Assembly: GCA_002269645.1 (NCBI GenBank)
Contig: NIVC01000130.1
Span: forward strand, 496,001-560,000
DNA: 64,000 nucleotides
Reading direction: 5' to 3'
Source of the DNA: Macrostomum lignano
Taxonomy: Eukaryota
Positions 35,245-63,848 of the stretch are shown here, piece after piece. The notes below the pieces were generated by a model. It was not told the origin of the DNA. It ran no database searches and worked only from the letters and a program-made list of their open reading frames with translations. Position 1 is the first letter of the stretch. The number at the start of each line of letters is the position of its first letter. The position numbers and the translations under genes are program-made.

Positions 35245-48966
<13,722 letters not shown>

Positions 48967-49722: not shown

Positions 49723-50892
49723 TGAAGTGAGCACTAGTTTAGTGTTAGGTGCCCCCTTTGTCAGCTGTGCCCTGCGCCCTCCTGAGCTGTTGGCTGCCGC
49801 TGGCCGCAGCTCTCCCTCCCTCTCTCCCTCTCCCTCTCTCTCTCCCTCTCCCACTCCTCTCTCTCCCTCTCCCTCCCTCGTTGTCCTTTTGTCTGCCTGC
49901 GCTCCCTTTTGTCCCCCCCTTTTTCCGGTTCGTTTGCGTTCCCAGCGTCTGAGCTTCTCCGCTCAGCCTGTCCTTGTTTCATTCTTTGTCTGTCTCCTTC
50001 CCCCCTTTTTGTGTGGCTGCGTTCTCTTGGCTCGAGTCCAGCCAGTTCTGGCTGTACTCTCTGTCTGGCCGTACGGGAGCGGATCACGTGCCCCGGCGCT
50101 CTGTCCTTTTCTTGCGCTGCCTTGTGCAATCTCGGGTGTCAGGCTCTAAATTAGGAATGGCGTCCTTGCCTCTCAAATTGAGGGTTCCGCGCCTGTTTCT
50201 AAAAATAGAACTGATTCACGCCAGATTGGGGGCAGTGAGAGCGGCCTCGCGCACTCTGGCGCAATGGGGTGTTGCACGGTATGGTGAAATCGATCCGCTA
50301 CCCTATAAGTACGGGCCTCTCGTGCCTCTGTTTGGCAACCCCCCCGACCGCCCGACTGACCGCCCCCTCTGTGAAACCTCTCGTTTACCTGTGCGTTAAT
50401 TCTTCTGATAACTGCTCTGTTGGAAGTCCAGCGCAGCTTGCGCTAGGCCTTAGCCAACCTATCTGATTTCTGATCCATCTGCGGCTGTGTGTCCTCGAGT
50501 GTGCTAAATCCCAACCGAACTAACAGAGACTAGCACAGTTCCTCATCCCCACACTTGAGCCCGGCAGGACCGCTGACGAGGTGTGCACCGGTACAAACGG
50601 TCAAATCTGCACGACGTGCTGAGTTCTCGTGTCTCGTTTCTTTCGCTCAGCCCGGAGTCTCCCTCACCGAAGGACAAGATCCGAGCGAGCTGGTGGCAGC
50701 ACTACCAACACTACCAAGGATTGCTAGAAGACTTCCTGGGAGAGTCTACCAAGAGCTCAAAGTAGGCAGCTCACGTGACTGACAGGGAAGTAGCCGGAAT
50801 AACAGAGTACTTCACTGGTGGCAGCGGTGGGATTCAAAGACCTACCAGGCCACCTCTAGACGCTATCGAGGAAAGTTCAAGCAACCACTTCA
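49723..50892 (+). repeat. 5' LTR (1170 bp)
   Basis: Direct repeat of 59087-60258. Confidence 0.95.
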
Positions 50893-50893
50893 C

Positions 50894-50911
50894 TGGTGGC
50901 AGCGGTGGGAT
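50894..50911 (+). other. Primer binding site, tRNA-Leu
   Basis: TGGTGGCAGCGGTGGGAT is complementary to the 3' 18 nt of eukaryotic tRNA-Leu(AAG)-type (...ATCCCACCGCTGCCACCA). Confidence 0.88.
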
Positions 50912-50980
50912 CCGACTTCGAAACACCCAAGCCAACCGCCCTTTTTCGAGAACGACTTTTCGGTCAGCTACGAGATCAGC

Positions 50981-52156
50981 ATGTTCAACGAGCGAGACGA
51001 GAGCCGGAGTAGCAGCCGGCTGGATCAGCACATCAGCAGTTCGAGGCCTGCGGCAGCAGACGCCGCCGCGGCAGCAGCAACGACCGGTGACTTCTGTCAG
51101 AGGCCCGCGCCGAGGCGAAGTGTACGAAGCGAGGTGTCCGAGGACCCGCCAGATGAGCTTCTGCGAGGCTTGGATGACCTTGGCCAGACCGTCAGACCAT
51201 TGGACCTGAGGACCATGATGGCAGCGCTGCAGCAGCAAATAGAGCGACCGGTGAGTAAACAGATTAAGATTGTTAAATTTACTCCAAGTCAAGACATTCA
51301 TGTCTGGCTTGCCGCGTTCGAGCAGCGTTGCGAGATGGAGCGAGTCGTCGACCCGTTCGAGATGAAGCAGCACCTCATCGCGAGTCTAGATCTGTCTACT
51401 GCGTATCCAGCCCTGCTCAGCATGCATCTGCCAAGGTTCGCCAGCTACGAGGAGGTTAAACAGCGTTTAATCGAGCGATTTGCGCGCCATGGTGGCGCTG
51501 ATGAGTATCGAGAGCTTCTAAGGAGGCGTCAGCAAGGCAAGAATGAGTCCGTAGAAGAGTACGCTGATTCGCTGCGCACCCTAGGAGAGCGTGCATACCC
51601 GAGGATGCATCCCGAGGACCGCGAGAAGGAGCTGGCTGATCAGTTCCTTGCCGGCCTGCGGACAACCCCAGATTTGCGAGAACGACTGTATTGGGTGCGC
51701 CCAAACAACTTGCTTGCCGCAATTCGAGAGCTGCACCGTCTAGAAGGTGCCAGAGAGCTGGCCCAGCGCTCCGCTCAACCCCCGGTTAGAATGTTGGACG
51801 GGGAGCAGGACGCTCGCCCGATATCAGACGCCACTGCCCAAGCCCTGTTGGCTTTGACCGAAGTACTCGAGAAGCAGCAGAAGCTGCTCAGCGACTTGGC
51901 TCAGCGTGATCAGCAGCAGCAGACGAGCCCGCCGACGAAGGCCATGATCTGCTATGGCTGTGGTCAGCCAGGCCACCGTAACGCCCAATGCCCGCTCCGC
52001 CAGAACCAGGGAAACGGCCAGCCGGAGAGCGCCCACGGCACCGCCCTCCAAAGAGCCCAAGCCCCGGCTACTTGGCAGACTCCGAGAGGTCACGAGAAGA
52101 AGAGGATGTCGGCTGTGCAGGCGCCAGTGCCCAGTCCGACAGTCGCTCGTCAGTAA
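50981..52156 (+). CDS. gag: Gag (capsid plus CCHC nucleocapsid knuckle)
   Basis: 391-aa ORF; CYGCGQPGHRNAQC knuckle. Confidence 0.93.
   Translation: MFNERDESRSSSRLDQHISSSRPAAADAAAAAATTGDFCQRPAPRRSVRSEVSEDPPDELLRGLDDLGQTVRPLDLRTMMAALQQQIERPVSKQIKIVKFTPSQDIHVWLAAFEQRCEMERVVDPFEMKQHLIASLDLSTAYPALLSMHLPRFASYEEVKQRLIERFARHGGADEYRELLRRRQQGKNESVEEYADSLRTLGERAYPRMHPEDREKELADQFLAGLRTTPDLRERLYWVRPNNLLAAIRELHRLEGARELAQRSAQPPVRMLDGEQDARPISDATAQALLALTEVLEKQQKLLSDLAQRDQQQQTSPPTKAMICYGCGQPGHRNAQCPLRQNQGNGQPESAHGTALQRAQAPATWQTPRGHEKKRMSAVQAPVPSPTVARQ
52009..52015 (+). promoter_or_regulatory. Likely -1 ribosomal frameshift slippery site G GGA AAC
   Basis: X XXY YYZ heptamer in the gag frame just after the knuckle; pol is in the -1 frame and reads G-K-R-P after it. 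Confidence 0.7.
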
Positions 52157-55100
52157 GCGAAGCGGAGCCCGGAGGTTTCGTGGACACCTCCGATGATCAA
52201 AAAATCCATGCGCGTGAGGCTGATCCGTACGTCACCGGCCGATTGGCGGGCCGAGAAGTCCCTTTCCTACTAGACAGCGGCAGTCGGAAAAACTTTCTTG
52301 GAGCGTCGACCTGGGCCAATGTTAGACGTCGGATGCCTCGTTGTATTATATCGCATGCTATCCCGGATTGCGTGACCATGTACGACGGTACGCAGCTACC
52401 CCTTGCGTGTAAGGTGATCATCCCGGTGGAGTTCGGTGATGTCGTCGCGGACACCGAATTCCTGGTCACGGTCACCGATTGTGAAAATTTGCTTGGTATT
52501 AATTTCATGCGTGAGCACTGCCAGAACTTGGACTTCGCTCAAGGAATGCTAAAGTTCAACAATGGCGCGTGCATTCCCGTTCGATATTCGCGCCGTGAGC
52601 TTCAATCATGCCGGGTGTACACCTCCGAGAAGTGCACTCTGCCGCCGAGAAGCTCAGCGCTGTTGGCCGTCCAGTTGGATGTCGGCCACCCCGAGAACCG
52701 AGGATCGCCATCAATCGTCGAGCTGGTGAAGTCGAGACTGCACCCCAGCTGCAACACTCTGGAAGCAGCTCCAGCTCTGATGACGATGCCTGAAGGTCGA
52801 GGCTACATCGAGGTCGTCAACACTGCTGACTGTGAGGTGTTCCTGCAGTCGGGCATCCGCGTTGGTGTTGCGACACCACTTAGAACTGCCGACTTGATGT
52901 ACCTGGAAGAAACGCCGGAACCTGAAGTGCGACATTTGCCAAGGAGCCCTGAAGAGCCCAGCACAGCTTGGCTAGAGGAAGTCGAGATCAACAGCGAGCT
53001 GTCCGAAGAGCAACGACAGAGAGTGCGAGATCTACTAGTTGAGTGTCAAGCAGCCTTCTCGAAGCATCTGCTAGACGCTGGCCTGACACACCTGGTGACC
53101 CACGAGATCATCCTGAAGGATCGGACACCAGTTGCGCTACCACCGCGCAGGATCCCGCCTCATCTGAAGGACAAGCTAGACGCCCTGCTAGACGAGATGC
53201 TGGCGAAGCACATCATTCGCCCAGCTTATTCTAGCTACAACTCGCCAATGCTGATAGTGCCCAAGAAGGACGGCAACATCAGGCTGGTGCATGACTTCAG
53301 AGCTCTCAACGACAAGTGTGTGTATCACCCGTACCCGCTGCCGCACATTCAGGAGACCTTCGCGAAGCTGCGTGGTGCCCAGTGGTATTCTAGCTTGGAT
53401 CTCGCCCAAGGATTCTGGCAGATCCCGCTGCGCGACTGCGATCAGCACCTGACGGCGTTCTCTGTGATTGACCGCGGACAATTCTGTTTCAATGTTCTAC
53501 CGATGGGTCTCCACGATAGTCCAGGCAGCTTTCAGCGTTGTATCAATAAGCTCCTGGACGGCCTGACGCCAAAGACCGCGCTTGGCTACATGGATGACAT
53601 CGTGGTGCACTCTGTGACCTTCGAGGAGCAGCTGGACAACCTGCGGACTGTACTCCAGCGGATTATCGCAGCCAACCTCAAGGTCAAGCCGAAAAAGTGC
53701 CATTTGTTCCTCAAGGAGCTGCATTATCTAGGTCACGTCGTGACTCCCGACGGCCTGAAGACCTGTGAGGACAAGATTGCGCAGATCCGTGATTGGCCCG
53801 TGCCACAGTCCGTTACTCAACTGAGACAATTCCTAGGCCTCGCCAATTACTACCACAAGTTTGTCAACGGCTACGCTGGATTTGCTGCGCCGCTGCATGC
53901 CCTGACTCGAAAGGACATCGGCAGCCTGCGGCAGCATTGGACTGATGAGCACCAGGTAGCGTTCGACACGTTGAAGAAGAAGTTGTGTTCGACTGAAGTT
54001 CTCGCTCTGCCTGAGTTTAACTCAGATCCTGATGTGAAGTTTGTCCTAGACACTGATGCCTCAGACATTCGCATAGGCGCTTGTCTTGGACAACGGCAAT
54101 CCGACGGCGTCGAGCGCCCAATTGCATTCTTTAGCCGGAAGCTTCGTGATCCTGAGAAGCGCTACACGGTCACGAAGAAAGAGCTGCTTGCAATCGTGGA
54201 CGCGATGCGACATTTCCGTCATTATTTAATTGGCAAGAAGTTTGAAGTTCGTTCTGACCATCGGGCCTTGCTGTGGCTGCTGAACCAGACGCAGGTCACA
54301 GGCATCTTGGGCCGTTGGATTGAGCGACTGAGCGAGTTCCGCTTCCAGCTTCACCATCGCAAAGGCAAGGACCACGCCAACGCCGACGCCCTGTCAAGAC
54401 GCCCGGAGACACCACCGGTTGACTTCGAACATGGCCGACTGCTTGAGCATCCCGGTTCTGCAGCCCGACACGATGATGACACCAGCTTGGAGCCGGACTT
54501 GGACACCACCCGGAAGGCCACTGCAAGACCAGCCCTTTCGAAGAAGGTCCGCACTCGCAACAAGGAGGCCAAGACTGCCCTGGCCGAAGACCTGAAGGCC
54601 ACCGCGCCAGCAGCCCTTCAGCACGACGACCATCGCCGCAGTCAACGCCAGGAGACCGGTTTGGACACCAACCCGGAGGCCACTGACACCTCAGCCCTCC
54701 GCAGCGACGCCCACGCCGACTGCTGTTACTTGGAGATTCGCCCGGACAAAACCTCGGAGGCCACTGCTGACGTAGACTTCCTTGATGATGTCCAAGACTG
54801 CGGGTCTCGGAACCTGGAGACGCCCATGGACTACGACTCAGAGGCCACTGAACAAGCAGCCCTCCTGATGACAGCCCACAACGCGAATCCAGACCAGCAA
54901 TGTAAGTTCAACTCCCCGGAGTTTTGCGCTGAGAGTTCTCGCCGTGTTGACAGAGGCCAGACTCTCGCGACGGCTGCAAGGTCAACGCTCTGTCCCCCGA
55001 GCCGACAGACAGCTGCTCATCGCCTGTGCGGAAAGTCGAGTCCCCCTTTGCGACACCGCCCAGTGCAGGAGAAGACTCACCCAATGACGACGATGATCGA

Positions 55101-58100
55101 GCCGACGGCTACGGCTGCCTGCGACGAGGCGTGCTTCACGTGTTGCGTCTCGCCCTACAGCCAAGAGTCGCCTGGGCTGTGCAGTGGAGGCAAGTGCACT
55201 GCTCCAGCTGCAGAAATTCCTGTCAAGAGAGCGACGATGAGAACTTCGAAACGGGATCAGCGATCGTACGCCGACGTTGTGAGACAAAGTCCCTCGGAGC
55301 GACCTAATCCTGACGCCGACAAGACGGAGTCGCGTGATCAACGGCGAGCCACCGAAGCGGAGACTGCGGGAGTCATGACCCCTCAGCCATGCCGCGCTGT
55401 GCTCACGGATTTTCTGAGGTTGCCGATGACGCGGCAACAGTTTGTCGACGCGCAGCGCGCCGACCGAGCTATCAGCTACGTGCTCAATCTGGTTAAGAAC
55501 GAAGCCCCGAAGCCAGAGTTTGATGCCCGATTGCGCCTGTCGAAGGAGCAGCGGAACCTGCTCGGTTATTTTGAGAATTTGCGAGTGGAGGACGACTTGC
55601 TGATGATCGACCTGACTGATGGCCAGCAGTCCCGAAGGTTGTCCTGCCCGAAGCCCTCGATGCCCAGGTGCTCCAGGAGCTCCACAGTTCGCCACTGTGT
55701 GGACACCTAGGCCAGACAAAAACGCTGAAACGACTGCGAGAACGATTCTGGCGGCCCGGATTAGCCCGTGTCACCGAGAATTTTATCAGCAGATGCCGTG
55801 CCTGTCTCGAAAGCAAATCGCGAAGGCGAGACAAAGTTCCAGTTCAAAGCTTCCCAGTCTGCGAAGTACTAGGAAGAGTACACTGCGATGTAGTAGGCCC
55901 TATTGCCCAGAGGAGCAAGAGTGGGAACCGCTACATATTGACCTTGTGCGACGCGACGTCGAAGTACCCGTTCGCCTATCCGATGAGGAACCAGAAAGCC
56001 AAGACGGTCATCAAGATCCTGCAGGAGCGCTTGATCCCTGACTTTGGTGTACCATGCTGGATACACACTGACCAAGGAACCAATTTCACGGGCTCAGCCT
56101 TCAAGAAGTTCTGCGACCTGTTTGGCATCCGGCATACGACGACAACACCGTACAATCCAGCTTCAAATGGTCAGGTCGAGAACCTCAACAAGCAGCTGAA
56201 GAGCGTTCTCACCTGCCTCCTCGAGCGAAACCACAACGACTGGGACACCTTCCTTCCAGCCTGTCTGATGGCTCTCCGCTCTAGTGTACACCCGGTGACA
56301 GGATTCACGCCCCACTACCTGGTGTTTGGCCGTGACTTCCGACTGCCGATCGACAACGCGCTGAAGAAGCTGCCCGAGTATGCCGACTTGCCTGACTATG
56401 TCAAGGACTTCCAGCGCCGATTAGACGAAGCGACTGAGCTAGCTAAAGAACGCCTGCATCTGCATCAGCAACTTCGAGACGAGCACTACTCCAACCTGCC
56501 GAAGGCCAAGAAGCTCAAGCCCGGTGACCTGGTTTTCCTCAACAACCCGGTGCTCGAACCGGACGAGGCGGCGAAGTTTCATCGACCCCGCAAAGCACTC
56601 TACGAAGTCGTAAAACCCAAAGGCGAGGTAGTCTACAAGATTCGCCGTAGACTGCCCAACCCGCGAGCCCGACGGGATGAACTTGTTGTTCATCGCCGCA
56701 ACCTGCTCCACGTTCCTGACGCTGACTACGCGATGATTTCAGATCCCGAAGTCGAGAAGGCGAAGAAGCGCAGACGGCAGCCAGATGATCCTGACGGTGC
56801 AGGACCCGCGACCCTGCCACCGGTTCCCGAGGAAGAGCTCGAAGATCCCGATGACAACGAGGACGATGATGTGAGGCCGGCTCTCTGGTGGTACTTCCGG
56901 CCTCTGGCAATCCCGGAGGTGCAGCCAGGAGGTGGACCGAACACGACACCAGCGAACCAGGCAAGTGCACTTCGGCGTGAGCCAGTGCCGTATGGTGAAT
57001 GCCACTTGCGTGAGCCTGTTTCTAATGCATCTGTGCCTGCTGCTTCCTTTTCGCCCGTCCATGTCCCTACTCCCCCCGAACCTTTTTCTGCGGTACAGTC
57101 TCGTGTACCATCGCCATGCACCACTCCGGTGGAAGCGCCTGTAGAGCCTGTAGGTTTCGGTAGGCTAGCTAGGGATCGTAGGCCTCCAGAGAGGCTCCTT
57201 ATTAGCGACACTAGGCCGCAAACGTACGCTAGTCGCACCGCCCGCATGCGCGCACAAAATTTAACTCATTCCAGCGCAGAAATGCACCACTCGCGTCCAC
57301 CAAAGCGAGCTGACCGCTCAAGCTCCGATGAGCGAGAGCGACGCCGACCCCGACCGGCTTTCTGCTCAGCGTACCAAGGCCCCGCGATCGGAGCAGCCGC
57401 CGGGCAAATTGAAGGCGCCCCGCGACTGGCCGCAGCCCCCCGGGTCCACCCTCGACTCCGGTTGGGCCTGCAAGATCGTGGGAGATCCCAGACGCCTCGG
57501 CCAGGCCATCGGTCACCACCCCCGGAGCGACAAGACCCCGCCCCGGCTCGAACACGCCGTCCCCGTCGCCGACGCGGCAGGCGCGCAGTGGCCCCAGCCC
57601 AAGAGGTCATCGACCTCACCCGAGATTCGCCCCCGCAGGTTCGCCGGCTGAGGGATCCCGGGCCAAGCAGCGATGGACCCGCGACCCGTCACCTTCAGGC
57701 AAATAGCCCCGCCGTCCTTCGCACCAAGTTTTTGAAGCAGGCGCCCAATGACCTTCCCCAGCCTGCAATCAGCGGCATGCCACGGGTGTCCAGCCCGGCG
57801 GTGTTGAGCGAGCGACGGCCTAGTGCGGCCGACCCGACGGCCGGCGAGCGCCTGGAAGATCTCGACAGCAGTTCCGACTCCATTAGGCCAGCTCCCGAAG
57901 CATCCGAGCCGCCGAGTGAGACTGCAGCAGTGACCGCAGAGCCGACCTTGACCCCGGCCAACCGGTCTCCGCCACCGGTCGACATGGCTACGCAGACATC
58001 GGAGGCGGATATTTGGAGCGACGACGAGGCGACTTATTCGTGGAGCCAGCTTGCCGCGGAGCTTCAACAGGCTCTGCCCGTGGCCCCGCCGCCATCACCC

Positions 58101-58490
58101 GCCGTCCCGCCGCCGGTTGAAAACGCCGAAGCCCAAACAGATACGTCGTTGGACCCCCAGGAGGTCTTGCCGACTTCGGCCACCCTGGTCCAAGACGCGG
58201 CCGCTGACCTGGCCGGCTACCTGATCCGCGCCGCGAGAACTGGCGAATGGCCGGCCTTTGACGACGTCTTCTGGCCGTTTCTCCGAGCAGCACCGGACCG
58301 CATTCGCCAAGCTGTACTCGATATGGCGGCAGAAATCGCCGCCCCAGGCCTAGCCGCGGCACCCCACCCGATGACGGCACGGGCGGTCGCCCGCCAGATG
58401 GCTAGGGAAATGGCCGGGCACCCGCCGACCGTCCCGGAGGCCTTGGCGCGTCTCGGTCGACCTGCCGGTGAAGATCCTCACGGGCTGTGA
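52009..58490 (+). CDS. pol: Pol (aspartic protease, RT, RNase H, integrase, long C-terminal extension), interrupted by a 1-nt frameshift at ~55636
   Basis: LLDSGS protease; YMDD RT; LDTDAS RNase H; HHCC (LH-x6-GH...RCRAC); DDE core HCDVVGP / HTDQG / GQVENLN; GPY/F-like module. The frame switch joins DGQQSR to VVLPEALDAQVLQELH. Confidence 0.93.
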
Positions 58491-59075
58491 GACCGTCGAA
58501 CAATTGAAGTCTGCCGCGCGAAGCCCATGAGCCCCTTTTTAAACCTACCTAGGCCTCCCATTTGTCGGCTTGAATCCTAGTTTGCCCTTCTTATTTTCTT
58601 GCCGTTTTGCCGTTTTTGTGCACCCTATCTGGGTCTCACATGTCGAGATCGTCGTGGGCCGCGCTCCTTTCTCTCTTGCTGCTCACCCAACCTTTGCTCA
58701 TCACGCGTTTTGACCTCCCTTTTGTGCATGCTCCCAGGGCTCTGCCAATTGACTCCCGGCATCCCACCAACATATTTAGGCGCCTTCGCTTTGTTTTAAT
58801 AGTTGGGCCGGCGCCCCCGTCACTATTTCAGGAAGCTAATAGGGCGTCAGCTCGCATTTGAAATCCAAAGTTGGTTCAAACCTTCTGCTTAATATTACAG
58901 CATTTGCCGCTCAAGTTAATCAGGAATTCATCGTTTTACCAGTTTCAGGTACAATCTTTGCCAACCTTTTGTCACCAAATCTGTTAACGCCAAATATTTA
59001 TCATTTGTCTTAAGTACAATTTAACTTGTTTGTTTTAAATAAAGCGGCTACGCTTGCACTCCGCCTCATCATTTG

Positions 59076-59086
59076 AACGGGGAGAG
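59076..59086 (+). other. Polypurine tract
   Basis: AACGGGGAGAG immediately before the 3' LTR. Confidence 0.8.
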
Positions 59087-60258
59087 TGAAGTGAGCACTA
59101 GTTTAGTGTTAGGTGCCCCCTTTGTCAGCTGTGCCCTGCGCCCTCCTGAGCTGTTGGCTGCCGCTGGCCGCAGCTCTCCCTCCCTCTCTCCCTCTCCCTC
59201 TCTCTCTCCCTCTCCCACTCCTCTCTCTCCCTCTCCCTCCCTCGTTGTCCTTTTGTCTGCCTGCGCTCCCTTTTGTCCCCCCCTTTTTCCGGTTCGTTTG
59301 CGTTCCCAGCGTCTGAGCTTCTCCGCTCAGCCTGTCCTTGTTTCATTCTTTGTCTGTCTCCTTCCCCCCTTTTTGTGTGGCTGCGTTCTCTTGGCTCGAG
59401 TCCAGCCAGTTCTGGCTGTACTCTCTGTCTGGCCGTACGGGAGCGGATCACGTGCCCCGGCGCTCTGTCCTTTTCTTGCGCTGCCTTGTGCAATCTCGGG
59501 TGTCAGGCTCTAAATTAGGAATGGCGTCCTTGCCTCTCAAATTGAGGGTTCCGCGCCTGTTTCTAAAAATAGAACTGATTCACGCCAGATTGGGGGCAGT
59601 GAGAGCGGCCTCGCGCACTCTGGCGCAATGGGGTGTTGCACGGTATGGTGAAATCGATCCGCTACCCTATAAGTACGGGCCTCTCGTGCCTCTGTTTGGC
59701 AACCCCCCCCCGACCGCCCGACTGACCGCCCCCTCTGTGAAACCTCTCGTTTACCTGTGCGTTAATTCTTCTGATAACTGCTCTGTTGGAAGTCCAGCGC
59801 AGCTTGCGCTAGGCCTTAGCCAACCTATCTGATTTCTGATCCATCTGCGGCTGTGTGTCCTCGAGTGTGCTAAATCCCAACCGAACTAACAGAGACTAGC
59901 ACAGTTCCTCATCCCCACACTTGAGCCCGGCAGGACCGCTGACGAGGTGTGCACCGGTACAAACGGTCAAATCTGCACGACGTGCTGAGTTCTCGTGTCT
60001 CGTTTCTTTCGCTCAGCCCGGAGTCTCCCTCACCGAAGGACAAGATCCGAGCGAGCTGGTGGCAGCACTACCAACACTACCAAGGATTGCTAGAAGACTT
60101 CCTGGGAGAGTCTACCAAGAGCTCAAAGTAGGCAGCTCACGTGACTGACAGGGAAGTAGCCGGAATAACAGAGTACTTCACTGGTGGCAGCGGTGGGATT
60201 CAAAGACCTACCAGGCCACCTCTAGACGCTATCGAGGAAAGTTCAAGCAACCACTTCA
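59087..60258 (+). repeat. 3' LTR (1172 bp)
   Basis: Direct repeat of the 5' LTR. Confidence 0.95.
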
Positions 60259-61587: not shown

Positions 61588-63848
61588 CTAGAAAGTCGAC
61601 CCGTTCGAACTCGTAAAGAAATTTATCCGACTGGCAAACAGCTTTGCAGCGTCGAATACATTCGAAGCAACAGTACGAGCATTGTGCGGGTAGCCCAGGT
61701 GTCTGAACCGGTGAATAGCGATTGTGCCGCTACTGACATCGCTGTCCAATCGAAAACCTTTGGACTTCATCCTTAAGCAGCCTTTTTCTTCTTCGAATAG
61801 CGCCTGCTTGTTACGGCGCTTTAAGTTTGCGGACGCTAAGATTGATAACTCTGAAAAATTGTTGAATATAATTGACAGTTTATAGTAAATGGATTGAATG
61901 ATCTTTTGCAGAAGTAAATGTAGTTCTAGATAATCAGGGAACTTAGAGGGATTGAGAAAAGGATATCTATCCTGATTGTGCCTAAACCAATCACCGAGCT
62001 ACAAGACCGGCAGAGGGAACAGGAGAGTGTTTCCAAGTTTATCAACTGGTCCCAGCCAATCACCGAGCTTCGAGACGGGCAGAGAGAGCAGGAGAGTGTG
62101 TCCAAGTTTAAAAAGTGGTCCCAGCCAATCAGCGTGCTTCGAGACGGGCAGAGGAAACAGGAGAGTGTGTCCAAGTTTATAAACTGGTCCCAGCCAATCA
62201 CCGTGCTGCGCCACGGGCAGAGGGATCAGAAGGGTGTCCTATATTTTGAACAGGCCAATCAGCGAACAAAGAGGGGTTGCGAGTCGTTTATTACGCGCGC
62301 ATAATGTTAATGTTAAAAACCAAAAGCTCACTGTTTTCTCCTGACGGATGGTAGCATCTCCAGCGATAATTCTGATTAGAGTCCATCACGGGTGACATGA
62401 CGTAATCGGGCAGCAGATCCACTGGATGCCGGCCCCCGTCCTGACCCTCCTCCCAGTAGGCCTTGAGCGCTCGGGTCAGCAGGTCCGGTCCCGTCGAGGA
62501 CACGGGGTCGCCGAATTTGCGCACCTTGAGCAGCTCGGCGATGCTGCGGTTGAAAAATGGGTGACCCGGCGTGGCGCCCATGCCGGAGTTCATGGCGTTG
62601 AAGCTGCGGTTCCACACGATCTGCGCCTGCATGGTGTTCTCCTGGTCCACGAAAGCCGAGTAGTTGGCCAGGCTCGGAAAGAAGGGACGCCTGCACTCGA
62701 CGTCCATGTCGATGTAGATGCCTGGAATGGAAGGAAGCATAGGTTGTGTAGTACCGAAAACAGAATACGCTCGTACAGCACAGAATACAGTACAGAATAC
62801 AGCACAGAATACAGCACAGAATACAGCACAGAATACAGTACAGAATACAGCACAGAATACAGTACAGAATACAGCACAGAGTACAGCACAGAGGCACCTT
62901 ACCCCCAAACTTGTGCAAGATGAAGTATCTGGCGGCATCAGACTTTTCCAGCGGATGCTTGAACTCTTTGAACTTCCACTCTAGATGGGGATAATGCACT
63001 TTAATCAACTGATCAATGTCTCTGTCAGTCCATAGGTAATATTTCATGTCGGGATTTAGCTTCACGCAGGACTCAATGTACTTTTGGTAAGCCGTTATCA
63101 CTCGTGAGGTTGAAAAAGTTTGATGGAGAATTTTCGGAATTCGTCGATTTCCAGTGCCAGTAATAATGAGCCTTTGAATTGTGCTGTAATTCCCTGTTAA
63201 TTCCCTGCTACCGCTGCTGTTTCGGTCTCTTGCGGGATGAAATTTCGAGAATGAAAAGTTGGCTACTCTTGGAATCTTGAAATTGTTGACAGGCAAGTAG
63301 AGGAAGGCCTGCAAATTGAAAATTTTGGGTTCGGCATCATATAGAGGATAAATATCAGCACAGATCCCTAAACAACCTTTTCTAACGAGAAAATACGTTC
63401 ATTGAAACGATGGTATCACCGGTATGCAACACCCAGTACCACTGGTATATTGAGCTGCAACACCAGGTATCACCGGTATATTGAGTAGCTGCAACACCCG
63501 GTATCCCCGGTATATTAAGTAGCTGCAACACCCGGTATCACCGGTATATTGAGTAGCTGCAACACCCGGTATCACCGGTATATTGAGTAGCTGCAAAACC
63601 CGGTATCACCGGTATATTGAGTAGCTGCAACACCCGGTATCACCGGTATATTGAGTAGCTGCAACACCCGGTATCACCGGTATATTGAGTAGCTGCAACA
63701 CCCGGTATATTGAGCTGCTATCGGTACATGTACACCTGGTATCACCGGTAAAAGGAGCTACCACAGAATAAACAGAAACTGTAAAGCTCACCATCACAAA
63801 TATGCTCGCCACAATTGATTTTATTAAAAGAATTTGTTTTTTTAACAT
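61588..63848 (-). CDS. Glycosyltransferase family 32 (Gly_transf_sug; SUR1/OCH1-like), type II membrane protein; exons 63848-63792, 63308-62903, 62721-62332, 61850-61588 (~371 aa)
   Basis: N-terminal hydrophobic anchor ILLIKSIVASIFVMAFLYL; IPKILHQTF, LWTD, KSDAARYFILHKFGGIYIDMD (DxD), STGPDLLT. All splice phases are consistent. Confidence 0.9.
61975..62225. repeat. ~71-bp minisatellite with CCAATC (GT32 intron)
   Basis: About 3.5 units of CCCAGCCAATCACCG...GGAGAGTGTGTCCAAGTTT. Confidence 0.85.
62770..62892. repeat. 12-bp repeat CAGAATACAGCA (GT32 intron)
   Basis: About 10 units. Confidence 0.92.
63415..63752. repeat. 34-bp minisatellite TGCAACACCCGGTATCACCGGTATATTGAGTAGC (GT32 intron 1)
   Basis: About 9 units. 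Confidence 0.92.

Follow-up and report, generated by a model that had tools for sequence, protein, structure and literature searches.

The DNA analysed here is a stretch of 64,000 nucleotides from the flatworm Macrostomum lignano (contig NIVC01000130.1, positions 496,001 to 560,000; hereafter the window). At 49723-60258 it holds a young Gypsy element, and downstream of integrase this element carries a third open reading frame (ORF3) of 402 aa, which is almost certainly a real gene under purifying selection. The element is flanked by a 4-nt target duplication, ATAA. A Pfam scan found gag, protease, reverse transcriptase (RT), RNase H and integrase, arranged as is usual for Gypsy elements. With its long terminal repeats (LTRs), primer-binding site, polypurine tract and target duplication, and with gag followed by protease, RT, RNase H and integrase, it belongs to Ty3/Gypsy. 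Beyond M. lignano, the best matches of its integrase are 26-38% identical, and two motifs of the element are absent from the supplements of PMC12801592. Its parts are as follows.

49723..50892, + strand: 5' LTR with TG...CA ends; 1170 of 1172 aligned columns are the same as in the 3' LTR
50894..50911, + strand: primer-binding site
50981..52156, + strand: gag, with a leader of ~90 aa, a capsid-like domain and one CCHC knuckle
51982..55710, + strand: first frame of pol, with protease, RT, RNase H and an insert of ~330 aa; the frame changes near its end
55620..56715, + strand: integrase (Pfam), with H2C2, core and GPY/F-type C-terminal module
57162..57227, + strand: RxxRxRRxPxRL...[KQ][ST]Y, a motif at the C-terminus of Pol; most sister families terminate Pol after it
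57282..58490, + strand: ORF3, 402 aa, its ATG at 57282 in the same frame as integrase
59038..59043, + strand: AATAAA, a possible poly(A) signal of ORF3's own, 49 nt 5' of the 3' LTR
59087..60258, + strand: 3' LTR, with the polypurine tract ahead of it; contains a second acceptor for the GC donor described below (AG ending 59933)

Integrase and ORF3 lie in a single open frame of 956 aa (55620-58490), which bears out the initial annotation: it had described about 590 codons past the GPY/F module and a 402-aa ORF3 starting at ATG 57282. Integrase_p58_C lies at aa 328-361 of this frame, with a Pfam score below the cut-off. Upstream, pol shifts frame at ~55620-55710, past the RNase H insert and ahead of the integrase zinc finger. 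The window copy itself is thus unable to make a full Pol-ORF3 protein.

The ORF3 protein and its versions

Five parts can be distinguished in ORF3.

57549..57584, + strand: arginine-rich stretch, 9 basic of 12 residues
57606..57620, + strand: VIDLT, a predicted SUMO-interacting motif (SIM), followed by RDSP
57978..58001, + strand: VDMATQTS, a predicted LC8 site, with an amphipathic WxxLAxEL helix and then PPxSP downstream
58116..58142, + strand: VENAEAQTD, a weak second LC8-like motif that is not conserved in the alignment
58170..58487, + strand: conserved C-terminal domain of five helices (predicted structure)

The three short motifs, as well as TTCCAG/CGCAG/AAATG at the start of ORF3 (slashes mark possible splice positions), lie exactly where they had been reported. 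We compared ORF3 across the genome. Its C-terminal half gave 96 matches among 132 genome candidates scored, and 45 genomic stretches were sampled over the score range. Excluding broken or partial copies, 19 elements had a long ORF3, and these represent the 14 distinct types analysed.

SIMs of the PIAS/RNF4 type have a [VI]-[VI]-D-L-T core with an acidic or phosphorylatable flank. VIDLT fits this core, and across types it is mostly followed by D, E or S and SP. The LC8 client motif is [D/S]-K-X-[T/V/I]-Q-[T/V]-[D/E] (PMC3078936; this and the papers below are cited from extracts). D-M-A-T-Q-T-S matches the LC8 anchor, though not at all consensus positions, and the second motif, AQTD, is without T, V or I at position -1. 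Binding of SUMO and binding of LC8 are both predicted from these motifs, and each is probable. The arginine-rich stretch, in which 8-9 of 12 residues are basic in 7 of the 14 types and 5-6 in the rest, likely serves nuclear localisation or RNA binding. The protein also holds 7-13 SP/TP sites.

The C-terminal 106 aa were modelled as five helices with a predicted local distance difference test score (pLDDT) of 84, as had been expected of a helical C-terminus. A hydropathy scan showed neither a signal peptide nor a membrane segment in ORF3: the top 19-residue value is 0.99 and the N-terminus is not hydrophobic. In 10 other ORF3 types the maxima range from 0.75 to 1.68, and 7 of these peaks lie inside the helical domain. 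Pfam gave no chromodomain match on the 956-aa frame or on ORF3, and no env model matched ORF3, so that the initial view of a protein that is not env and has no chromodomain holds.

That ORF3 is a selected gene was seen from the ratio of nonsynonymous to synonymous substitution rates (dN/dS), which was below 1 in every computable pair of the 16 compared. Values were 0.00-0.40 for the C-terminal domain, 0.08-0.32 for residues 1-60 and 0.20-0.74 for the part between them. The motifs recur among the types: [IV]DLT in 11 of 14 (shuffles: mean 0.08, maximum 2), [TVIC]QT in 13 of 14 (mean 1.4, maximum 6) and PPx[ST]P in 14 of 14 (mean 1.5), where the shuffles take no account of common descent among the types. 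The SIM is located at differing alignment positions in several types. Motif conservation thus holds for the SIM and the first TQT within the element's own family; AQTD is not kept, and the exact motifs are missing in sister families.

In the searches run, the helical domain matched no ORF3 described before. No Pfam family scored above cut-off for ORF3 or for 17 C-terminal domains, GDSL, DEDDy and J-domain families included. Sequence searches of the PDB with ORF3 gave best E values of 0.11 and 1, and Atlas searches gave no usable match. Residues 205-402 and the C-domain profile matched the window's own protein alone among the ~8000 candidates scored for each. A HMMER profile scan of 1.84 billion proteins returned three matches, each a version of ORF3, and NCBI assigns close relatives of ORF3 to M. 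lignano. Fold searches were run with two models and neither gave a clear match: for the helical domain the best Foldseek E values were 1.4 (PDB) and 1.1 (BFVD), and the best VIA match had a Z of 6.2 and a root-mean-square deviation of 3.2 over 85 aligned residues. We found no account of this ORF3 in the literature surveyed; an older classification of M. lignano LTR elements might mention it.

The versions of ORF3 sit on a nearly constant backbone. RT is 97-100% identical among the 19 elements (15 scored) and the integrase core 90-100%, while the ORF3 types are 20-72% identical to one another, with a median of 34% in the C-terminal domain. Between the window copy and one relative, L115, nucleotide identity is 99.7% in RT, 98% in the linker and 45% in ORF3, and similarity between elements ends at the ORF3 ATG or shortly 3' of it. 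The median proportion of synonymous differences is ~0.69 in ORF3 (saturated), 0.60 in the gag capsid (nearly so) and 0.33 in RT. Since the synonymous sites of ORF3 are saturated, its versions are old and have not merely changed rapidly in protein sequence. ORF3 groups track three backbone subfamilies, with far longer branches. Near-identical RT together with highly diverged ORF3 points to a recombining cassette, and the simplest reading is that one backbone has spread over many retained ORF3 versions. Two further loci, L146 and L147 (G000:C550 and C757), have a backbone 90-95% identical and an ORF3 C-terminus that barely matches the window's or does not match it; they are possibly further types or broken copies.

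Splice sites and the ORF3 message

Four features bear on how ORF3 is expressed.

51251..56742, + strand: GT-AG intron over most of gag and pol; donor CCG/GTGAGT, acceptor TTTCAG/ATC
56907..56996, + strand: block of near-zero synonymous variation around the GC donor (synonymous difference 0.00-0.03 versus 0.09-0.40 in integrase)
56961..57274, + strand: GC-AG intron of 314 nt; donor CAG/GCAAGT, acceptor TTCCAG/
57269..57274, + strand: YTNCAG acceptor 7 nt 5' of the ORF3 ATG, the same as the leading acceptor motif of spliced leader (SL) trans-splicing

RNA evidence came from contigs of four RNA-like runs; 13 matching runs were guessed to be RNA and none is recorded as RNA. Contigs drop rare forms, and the presence of a form is shown by them, its absence is not. 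The joint of 51250 to 56743 was found in contigs of three of the four runs, and one run of uncertain type reads through this site unspliced. All 30 genomic loci examined keep the gag donor CCG/GTGAGT intact, and the acceptor at 56742 is present in 13 of the 24 loci that hold the region. The spliced RNA includes ORF3, with the gag leader ending in another frame at 56874; this singly spliced form would encode 414 aa. A fusion of the gag leader to ORF3 was rejected, as the observed splice brings the leader into another frame (stop at 56874) and a direct joint to 57275 or 57280 would also miss the ORF3 frame. Two other candidate donors (56871, 56995) and a candidate acceptor near 57098, which would be in frame, showed no joint; of these, 56871 is not conserved.

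The GC donor (56960/61) is present in 41 of 46 loci; in two the intron is gone and in three the region is missing. Three genomic loci lack exactly the equivalent of intron 56961-57274, and they represent two independent insertions. L126 and L136 share flanks and are one intron-less insertion. L171, of another ORF3 type and 99% identical to L131 outside the gap, is an independent copy. No other internal deletion among those listed obeys the splice rule. The intron-less copies are best read as reverse-transcribed spliced RNAs, and they indicate that acceptor 57274 is used in cis with the GC donor. The same donor has a second partner: the gene model P0006 follows the frame of L046 for 709 aa to the GC donor and then ends in DR-stop, and this points to the LTR acceptor (AG ending 59933), the sole supplier of DR-stop. 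With either acceptor, splicing from the GC donor leaves Pol just 9-23 further residues in 12 of 13 types.

The acceptor at 57274 also has the marks of an SL site. It reads YTNCAG in 28 of 30 loci of the element's own family and TTTTAG in the other two, and among the SL acceptor motifs of M. lignano [T/C]TNCAG ranks first (PMC8629364), although fit to this motif does not single out SL sites and cis acceptors may fit as well. The published annotation of M. lignano cuts gene models at mapped SL sites (PMC5730564). Among the public models, P0005 begins AE-M, i.e. at acceptor 57274, and P0002 and P0003 start at the post-acceptor ATG, not at the upstream in-frame ATG. SL trans-splicing at 57274 is therefore likely, judged from motif and gene models. 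A free ORF3 protein made from RNA that uses this acceptor is very probable, and SL addition is, by a modest degree, favoured as the main route to the ORF3 message. With an acceptor ahead of the ORF that is used in cis, and with free-protein gene models, ORF3 also resembles env-type ORF3s in being expressed from a subgenomic RNA.

Several observations weigh against this account. At the intron-less junction there is a microhomology of 3 nt (CAG), which makes template switching a less likely alternative origin of these copies. P0004 begins one residue past the ATG rather than at the acceptor, and all gene models were compared by protein sequence. Among the rows listed for the contigs of X1, X2 and X5 there was no joint at 57275 or 57280 and no SL-like loose end, and contigs run unspliced across 57274, one of them identical to the window copy. 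Moreover, the M. lignano SL ends in AUG (PMC8629364); joined at either AG, this AUG would not share the frame of ORF3, and translation would require leaky scanning. Of the splicing first proposed, use of acceptor 57274 thus stands; a junction from the LTR to 57275 or 57280 is not listed in the four RNA-like runs, and the cis donor lies 314 nt upstream of the acceptor.

Cis-splicing alone might give the same protein. Here the gag donor would join 56743, the GC donor would join 57275, and ribosomes would reinitiate 93 nt past a 133-codon ORF of the gag leader. Each of these splices is individually supported, and the longest ORF of the doubly spliced form is exactly the 402 aa of ORF3. But 11 of 24 loci are without the 56742 acceptor, both splices were never seen on one molecule, and sister families have no strong donor nearby. 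Reinitiation after 133 codons is inefficient, which counts further against this route, and we consider it unlikely that cis-splicing is the whole explanation. A protease site at H[FS]/SAEM was rejected as the means of freeing ORF3. Conservation there is stronger at the nucleotide level than in the encoded residues (SAEM, SAAM or PCSAEM, with upstream codons shifted), which is more in keeping with a splice signal.

AATAAA occurs 49-51 nt ahead of the LTR in 14 of 14 ORF3 types. The one at 59038 is the only one from ORF3 through the end of the 3' LTR and sits 5' of the polypurine tract; RNA-like contigs continue past it into the LTR.

ORF3 in related families

We sampled 20 sister-family loci, of which 19 hold the Pol end motif; these represent ~5 families. 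The last part of the linker between integrase and ORF3 is the motif where Pol stops in a sister family. In 16 of the 19 loci the third ORF is separate from pol and in three it is fused. YTNCAG stands 7-30 nt 5' of the third-ORF ATG in 19 of 19, against a background of 55 of 803 ATGs, and the acceptor and ATG of ORF3 are kept across families irrespective of the frame with Pol. Within 900 nt no strong cis donor was found in the sister families, the top score being 4.6 versus 8.9 bits.

The C-terminal domains of L201, L204, L205 and L206 are homologous to that of the window (hhalign 88%, E 3e-6), with profile scores of 14-18 bits versus shuffle maxima of 2-7. On the integrase tree the closest sister is L204/L205 (support 93/92), whose ORF3 is homologous and stands apart from pol. 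For the most distant ORF3, that of L187-L200, no sequence homology was detected (hhalign 0.1%; profile scores no higher than those of shuffles), although its model, at a pLDDT of 69, shows the same succession of helices. Homology in the most distant families would accordingly be by position and predicted helix order alone. Taken together, the comparison indicates that the integrase-ORF3 fusion is secondary and lineage-specific.

These data bear on the possibility that ORF3 acts within integrase, travelling with the pre-integration complex and serving targeting or transport through SUMO or dynein. The Pol-to-ORF3 frame is open in several deep types (1776-1789 codons upstream in L122, L134 and L138), the linker frame is maintained across types, and a second family is also fused. 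Against this, the invariant splice in the element's own, fused family cuts Pol off shortly past integrase, and the public gene models are free proteins. Since most sister families keep ORF3 separate, an integrase-targeting role is weakened and appears improbable. The fusion that the initial annotation had proposed exists as an open frame; it is confined to certain lineages, and in the element's own family splicing separates the two proteins again.

Further features of the element and its surroundings were recorded. The primer-binding site is presumably of the tRNA-Leu type. A copy of it lies inside the LTR (50816 and 60182), 78 nt ahead of the true site; in relatives such LTR-internal copies are arranged in tandem, three in L115 and two each in L116 and L111. 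No heat-shock elements were found in the LTR with a 15-nt pattern. The ~330-aa insert between RNase H and the integrase zinc finger (~54400-55400) is of low complexity with repeated T(P/S)EAT-like words, and is much shorter in the sister protein P0007. Outside the element, window positions 40000-48500 hold dense tandem-repeat arrays whose periods range from 12 to 89 nt; two of the arrays are mutually inverted copies. At 62291-63398 on the minus strand lie gene exons containing a 12-nt tandem repeat, which from their motifs we take to be those of a probable DXD-type glycosyltransferase.

A possible role for ORF3

What might such a protein do? In Drosophila, LC8/Cut-up dimerises the piRNA silencing complex (PMC7861614) and SUMO scaffolds effectors of piRNA silencing (PMC8490990). 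LC8 chiefly dimerises disordered clients (PMC7861614, PMC3078936), and dimerisation is thus more likely than dynein transport; the initial annotation had named anti-silencing, chromatin targeting and transport as possible functions. The M. lignano genome has at least eight intron-less, near-equal LC8 (Dynein_light) matches (L207-L214), and 20 in total at E <1e-15.

The anatomy of ORF3, the roles of LC8 and SUMO in Drosophila and the retained diversity of ORF3 together lead us to favour a nuclear counter-silencing adaptor. The LTR transcript would be handled in operon manner. Pol would be cut short just past integrase whenever the GC donor is spliced, be it to 57274 or into the 3' LTR, and addition of the SL at 57274 would give a capped ORF3 message; a Pol-ORF3 fusion would arise from unspliced RNA alone. 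The basic stretch would take ORF3 into the nucleus, where LC8 might join two chains at TQT, so that paired SIMs could dock on SUMO-modified silencing complexes sitting on the element, and the helical domain may bind a host partner. In full, that is a third gene whose free protein, likely made via the SL at 57274, is a nuclear, LC8-dimerised, SUMO-docking counter-factor of silencing, and we regard this scheme as plausible at slightly less than even chance. The counter-silencing role taken by itself is offered tentatively. Less probable is the wider picture of an operon-like clade that releases a silencing-mimic protein via an internal SL site, with at least 14 swapped, diverged versions on one backbone.

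Some results speak against this scheme. An arms race left no direct sign, as dN/dS exceeded 1 in no computable pair. The SIM is missing from 3 of the 14 types, and in sister families exact [IV]DLT and TQT are replaced by looser look-alikes. Of 10 ORF3 forms from sister families, none has a protein record, and the link of LC8 and SUMO to silencing is known from Drosophila, not from flatworms.

The main rival is a Rev-like role, since the protein CERV of the Caenorhabditis elegans element Cer1 exports unspliced RNA and the element studied here has sites to skip. The arginine-rich stretch would bind element RNA, perhaps at 56907-56996, and export unspliced genomic RNA. CERV is a precedent as a nuclear exporter of genomic RNA, and its mRNA is spliced and partly SL1-trans-spliced (PMC10309623, PMC3315495). 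Strong splice sites on the element must be skipped, X1 and X6 show the spliced form with part of gag uncovered, and the invariant RNA block lies over the GC donor. At ~90 nt, this block exceeds the length needed by a splice donor. The SP/TP sites of ORF3 recall CERV, which depends on a phosphorylated Ser, the presumed target of a proline-directed kinase (PMC10309623, PMC3315495). However, if the RNA target is invariant its binder should be conserved, and only 7 of the 14 types have a strong basic stretch. The fold of the block is within chance (z -1.0), a predicted hairpin burying the donor included; two-sided change was seen in 1 of 35 pairs, and there was no Rfam match. No conserved export signal was apparent by eye, and the likeness to CERV is one of description. 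We judge a Rev-like role to be unlikely, though deserving of more weight than action within integrase.

Least probable, in our view, is that ORF3 is a cytoplasmic factor of particle assembly or transport and that the SIM match is incidental. TQT motifs do occur in disordered linkers of many kinds of protein, and the gaps in SIM conservation just mentioned would fit. The basic stretches, by contrast, resemble nuclear localisation signals, and a SIM that is retained but shifted in the alignment is typical of functional short motifs.

The counter-silencing adaptor that we favour may be compared with known systems. Errantivirus env ORF3s have an acceptor just before the ORF and a donor early in gag. 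ORF3 shares this position, acceptor and early gag donor with them and with Boudicca and Saci-3, which have an env-like third ORF (PMC2582038); it differs from env ORF3s in having no signal peptide or membrane segment and in that the gag-donor splice is out of its frame. Like CERV, it is a Gypsy non-env accessory protein of novel sequence, with a message that would likewise be spliced and partly SL-trans-spliced, and both elements must skip sites to keep genomic RNA. CERV has 517 aa, three structured domains and a Cys loop, whereas ORF3 is mostly disordered with one helical domain. Unlike CERV, ORF3 follows integrase, carries SIM and TQT motifs, is hypervariable and would have an internal, operon-like SL site; PMC10309623 makes no mention of SUMO. 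The non-env ORF3s of bdelloid LTR retrotransposons encode a GDSL esterase or a DEDDy exonuclease (PMC5408684). They too are third ORFs in the env slot, modular, family-specific and not envelope, but they are captured enzymes of known families, whereas ORF3 contains neither a catalytic domain nor any other known one, and its versions differ inside a single RT family. With Panoramix/PICTS, LC8/Cut-up and SUMO of Drosophila, ORF3 shares the design of a disordered TQT protein linked to SUMO-dependent silencing, which it may mimic (PMC7861614, PMC8490990). These are fly host factors, and the likeness is by motifs and implies no homology.

Third ORFs other than env have been described before, as have spliced accessory genes and, for Cer1, the trans-splicing of an SL to a Gypsy mRNA. 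As far as we searched, the helical domain, the combination of SIM and TQT, the internal SL-type acceptor with its GC-AG switch, by which ORF3 is uncoupled from Pol, and the pool of alleles on one backbone are new within the literature surveyed. Few accessory proteins of animal LTR retrotransposons beyond Env are known, and CERV is the sole one with a tested non-env function in that literature. The clade contributes a domain found in no other organism's proteins among the 1.84 billion scanned. Its fixed enzyme backbone, combined with old, selected and highly diverged accessory alleles, suggests conflict with the host. Should the SL junction prove true, this would be a retrotransposon that expresses a downstream gene in the manner of a host operon. 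Since M. lignano is a transgenic and RNAi-tractable model, the location, partners and silencing effect of ORF3 are accessible with the ORF3 gene alone.

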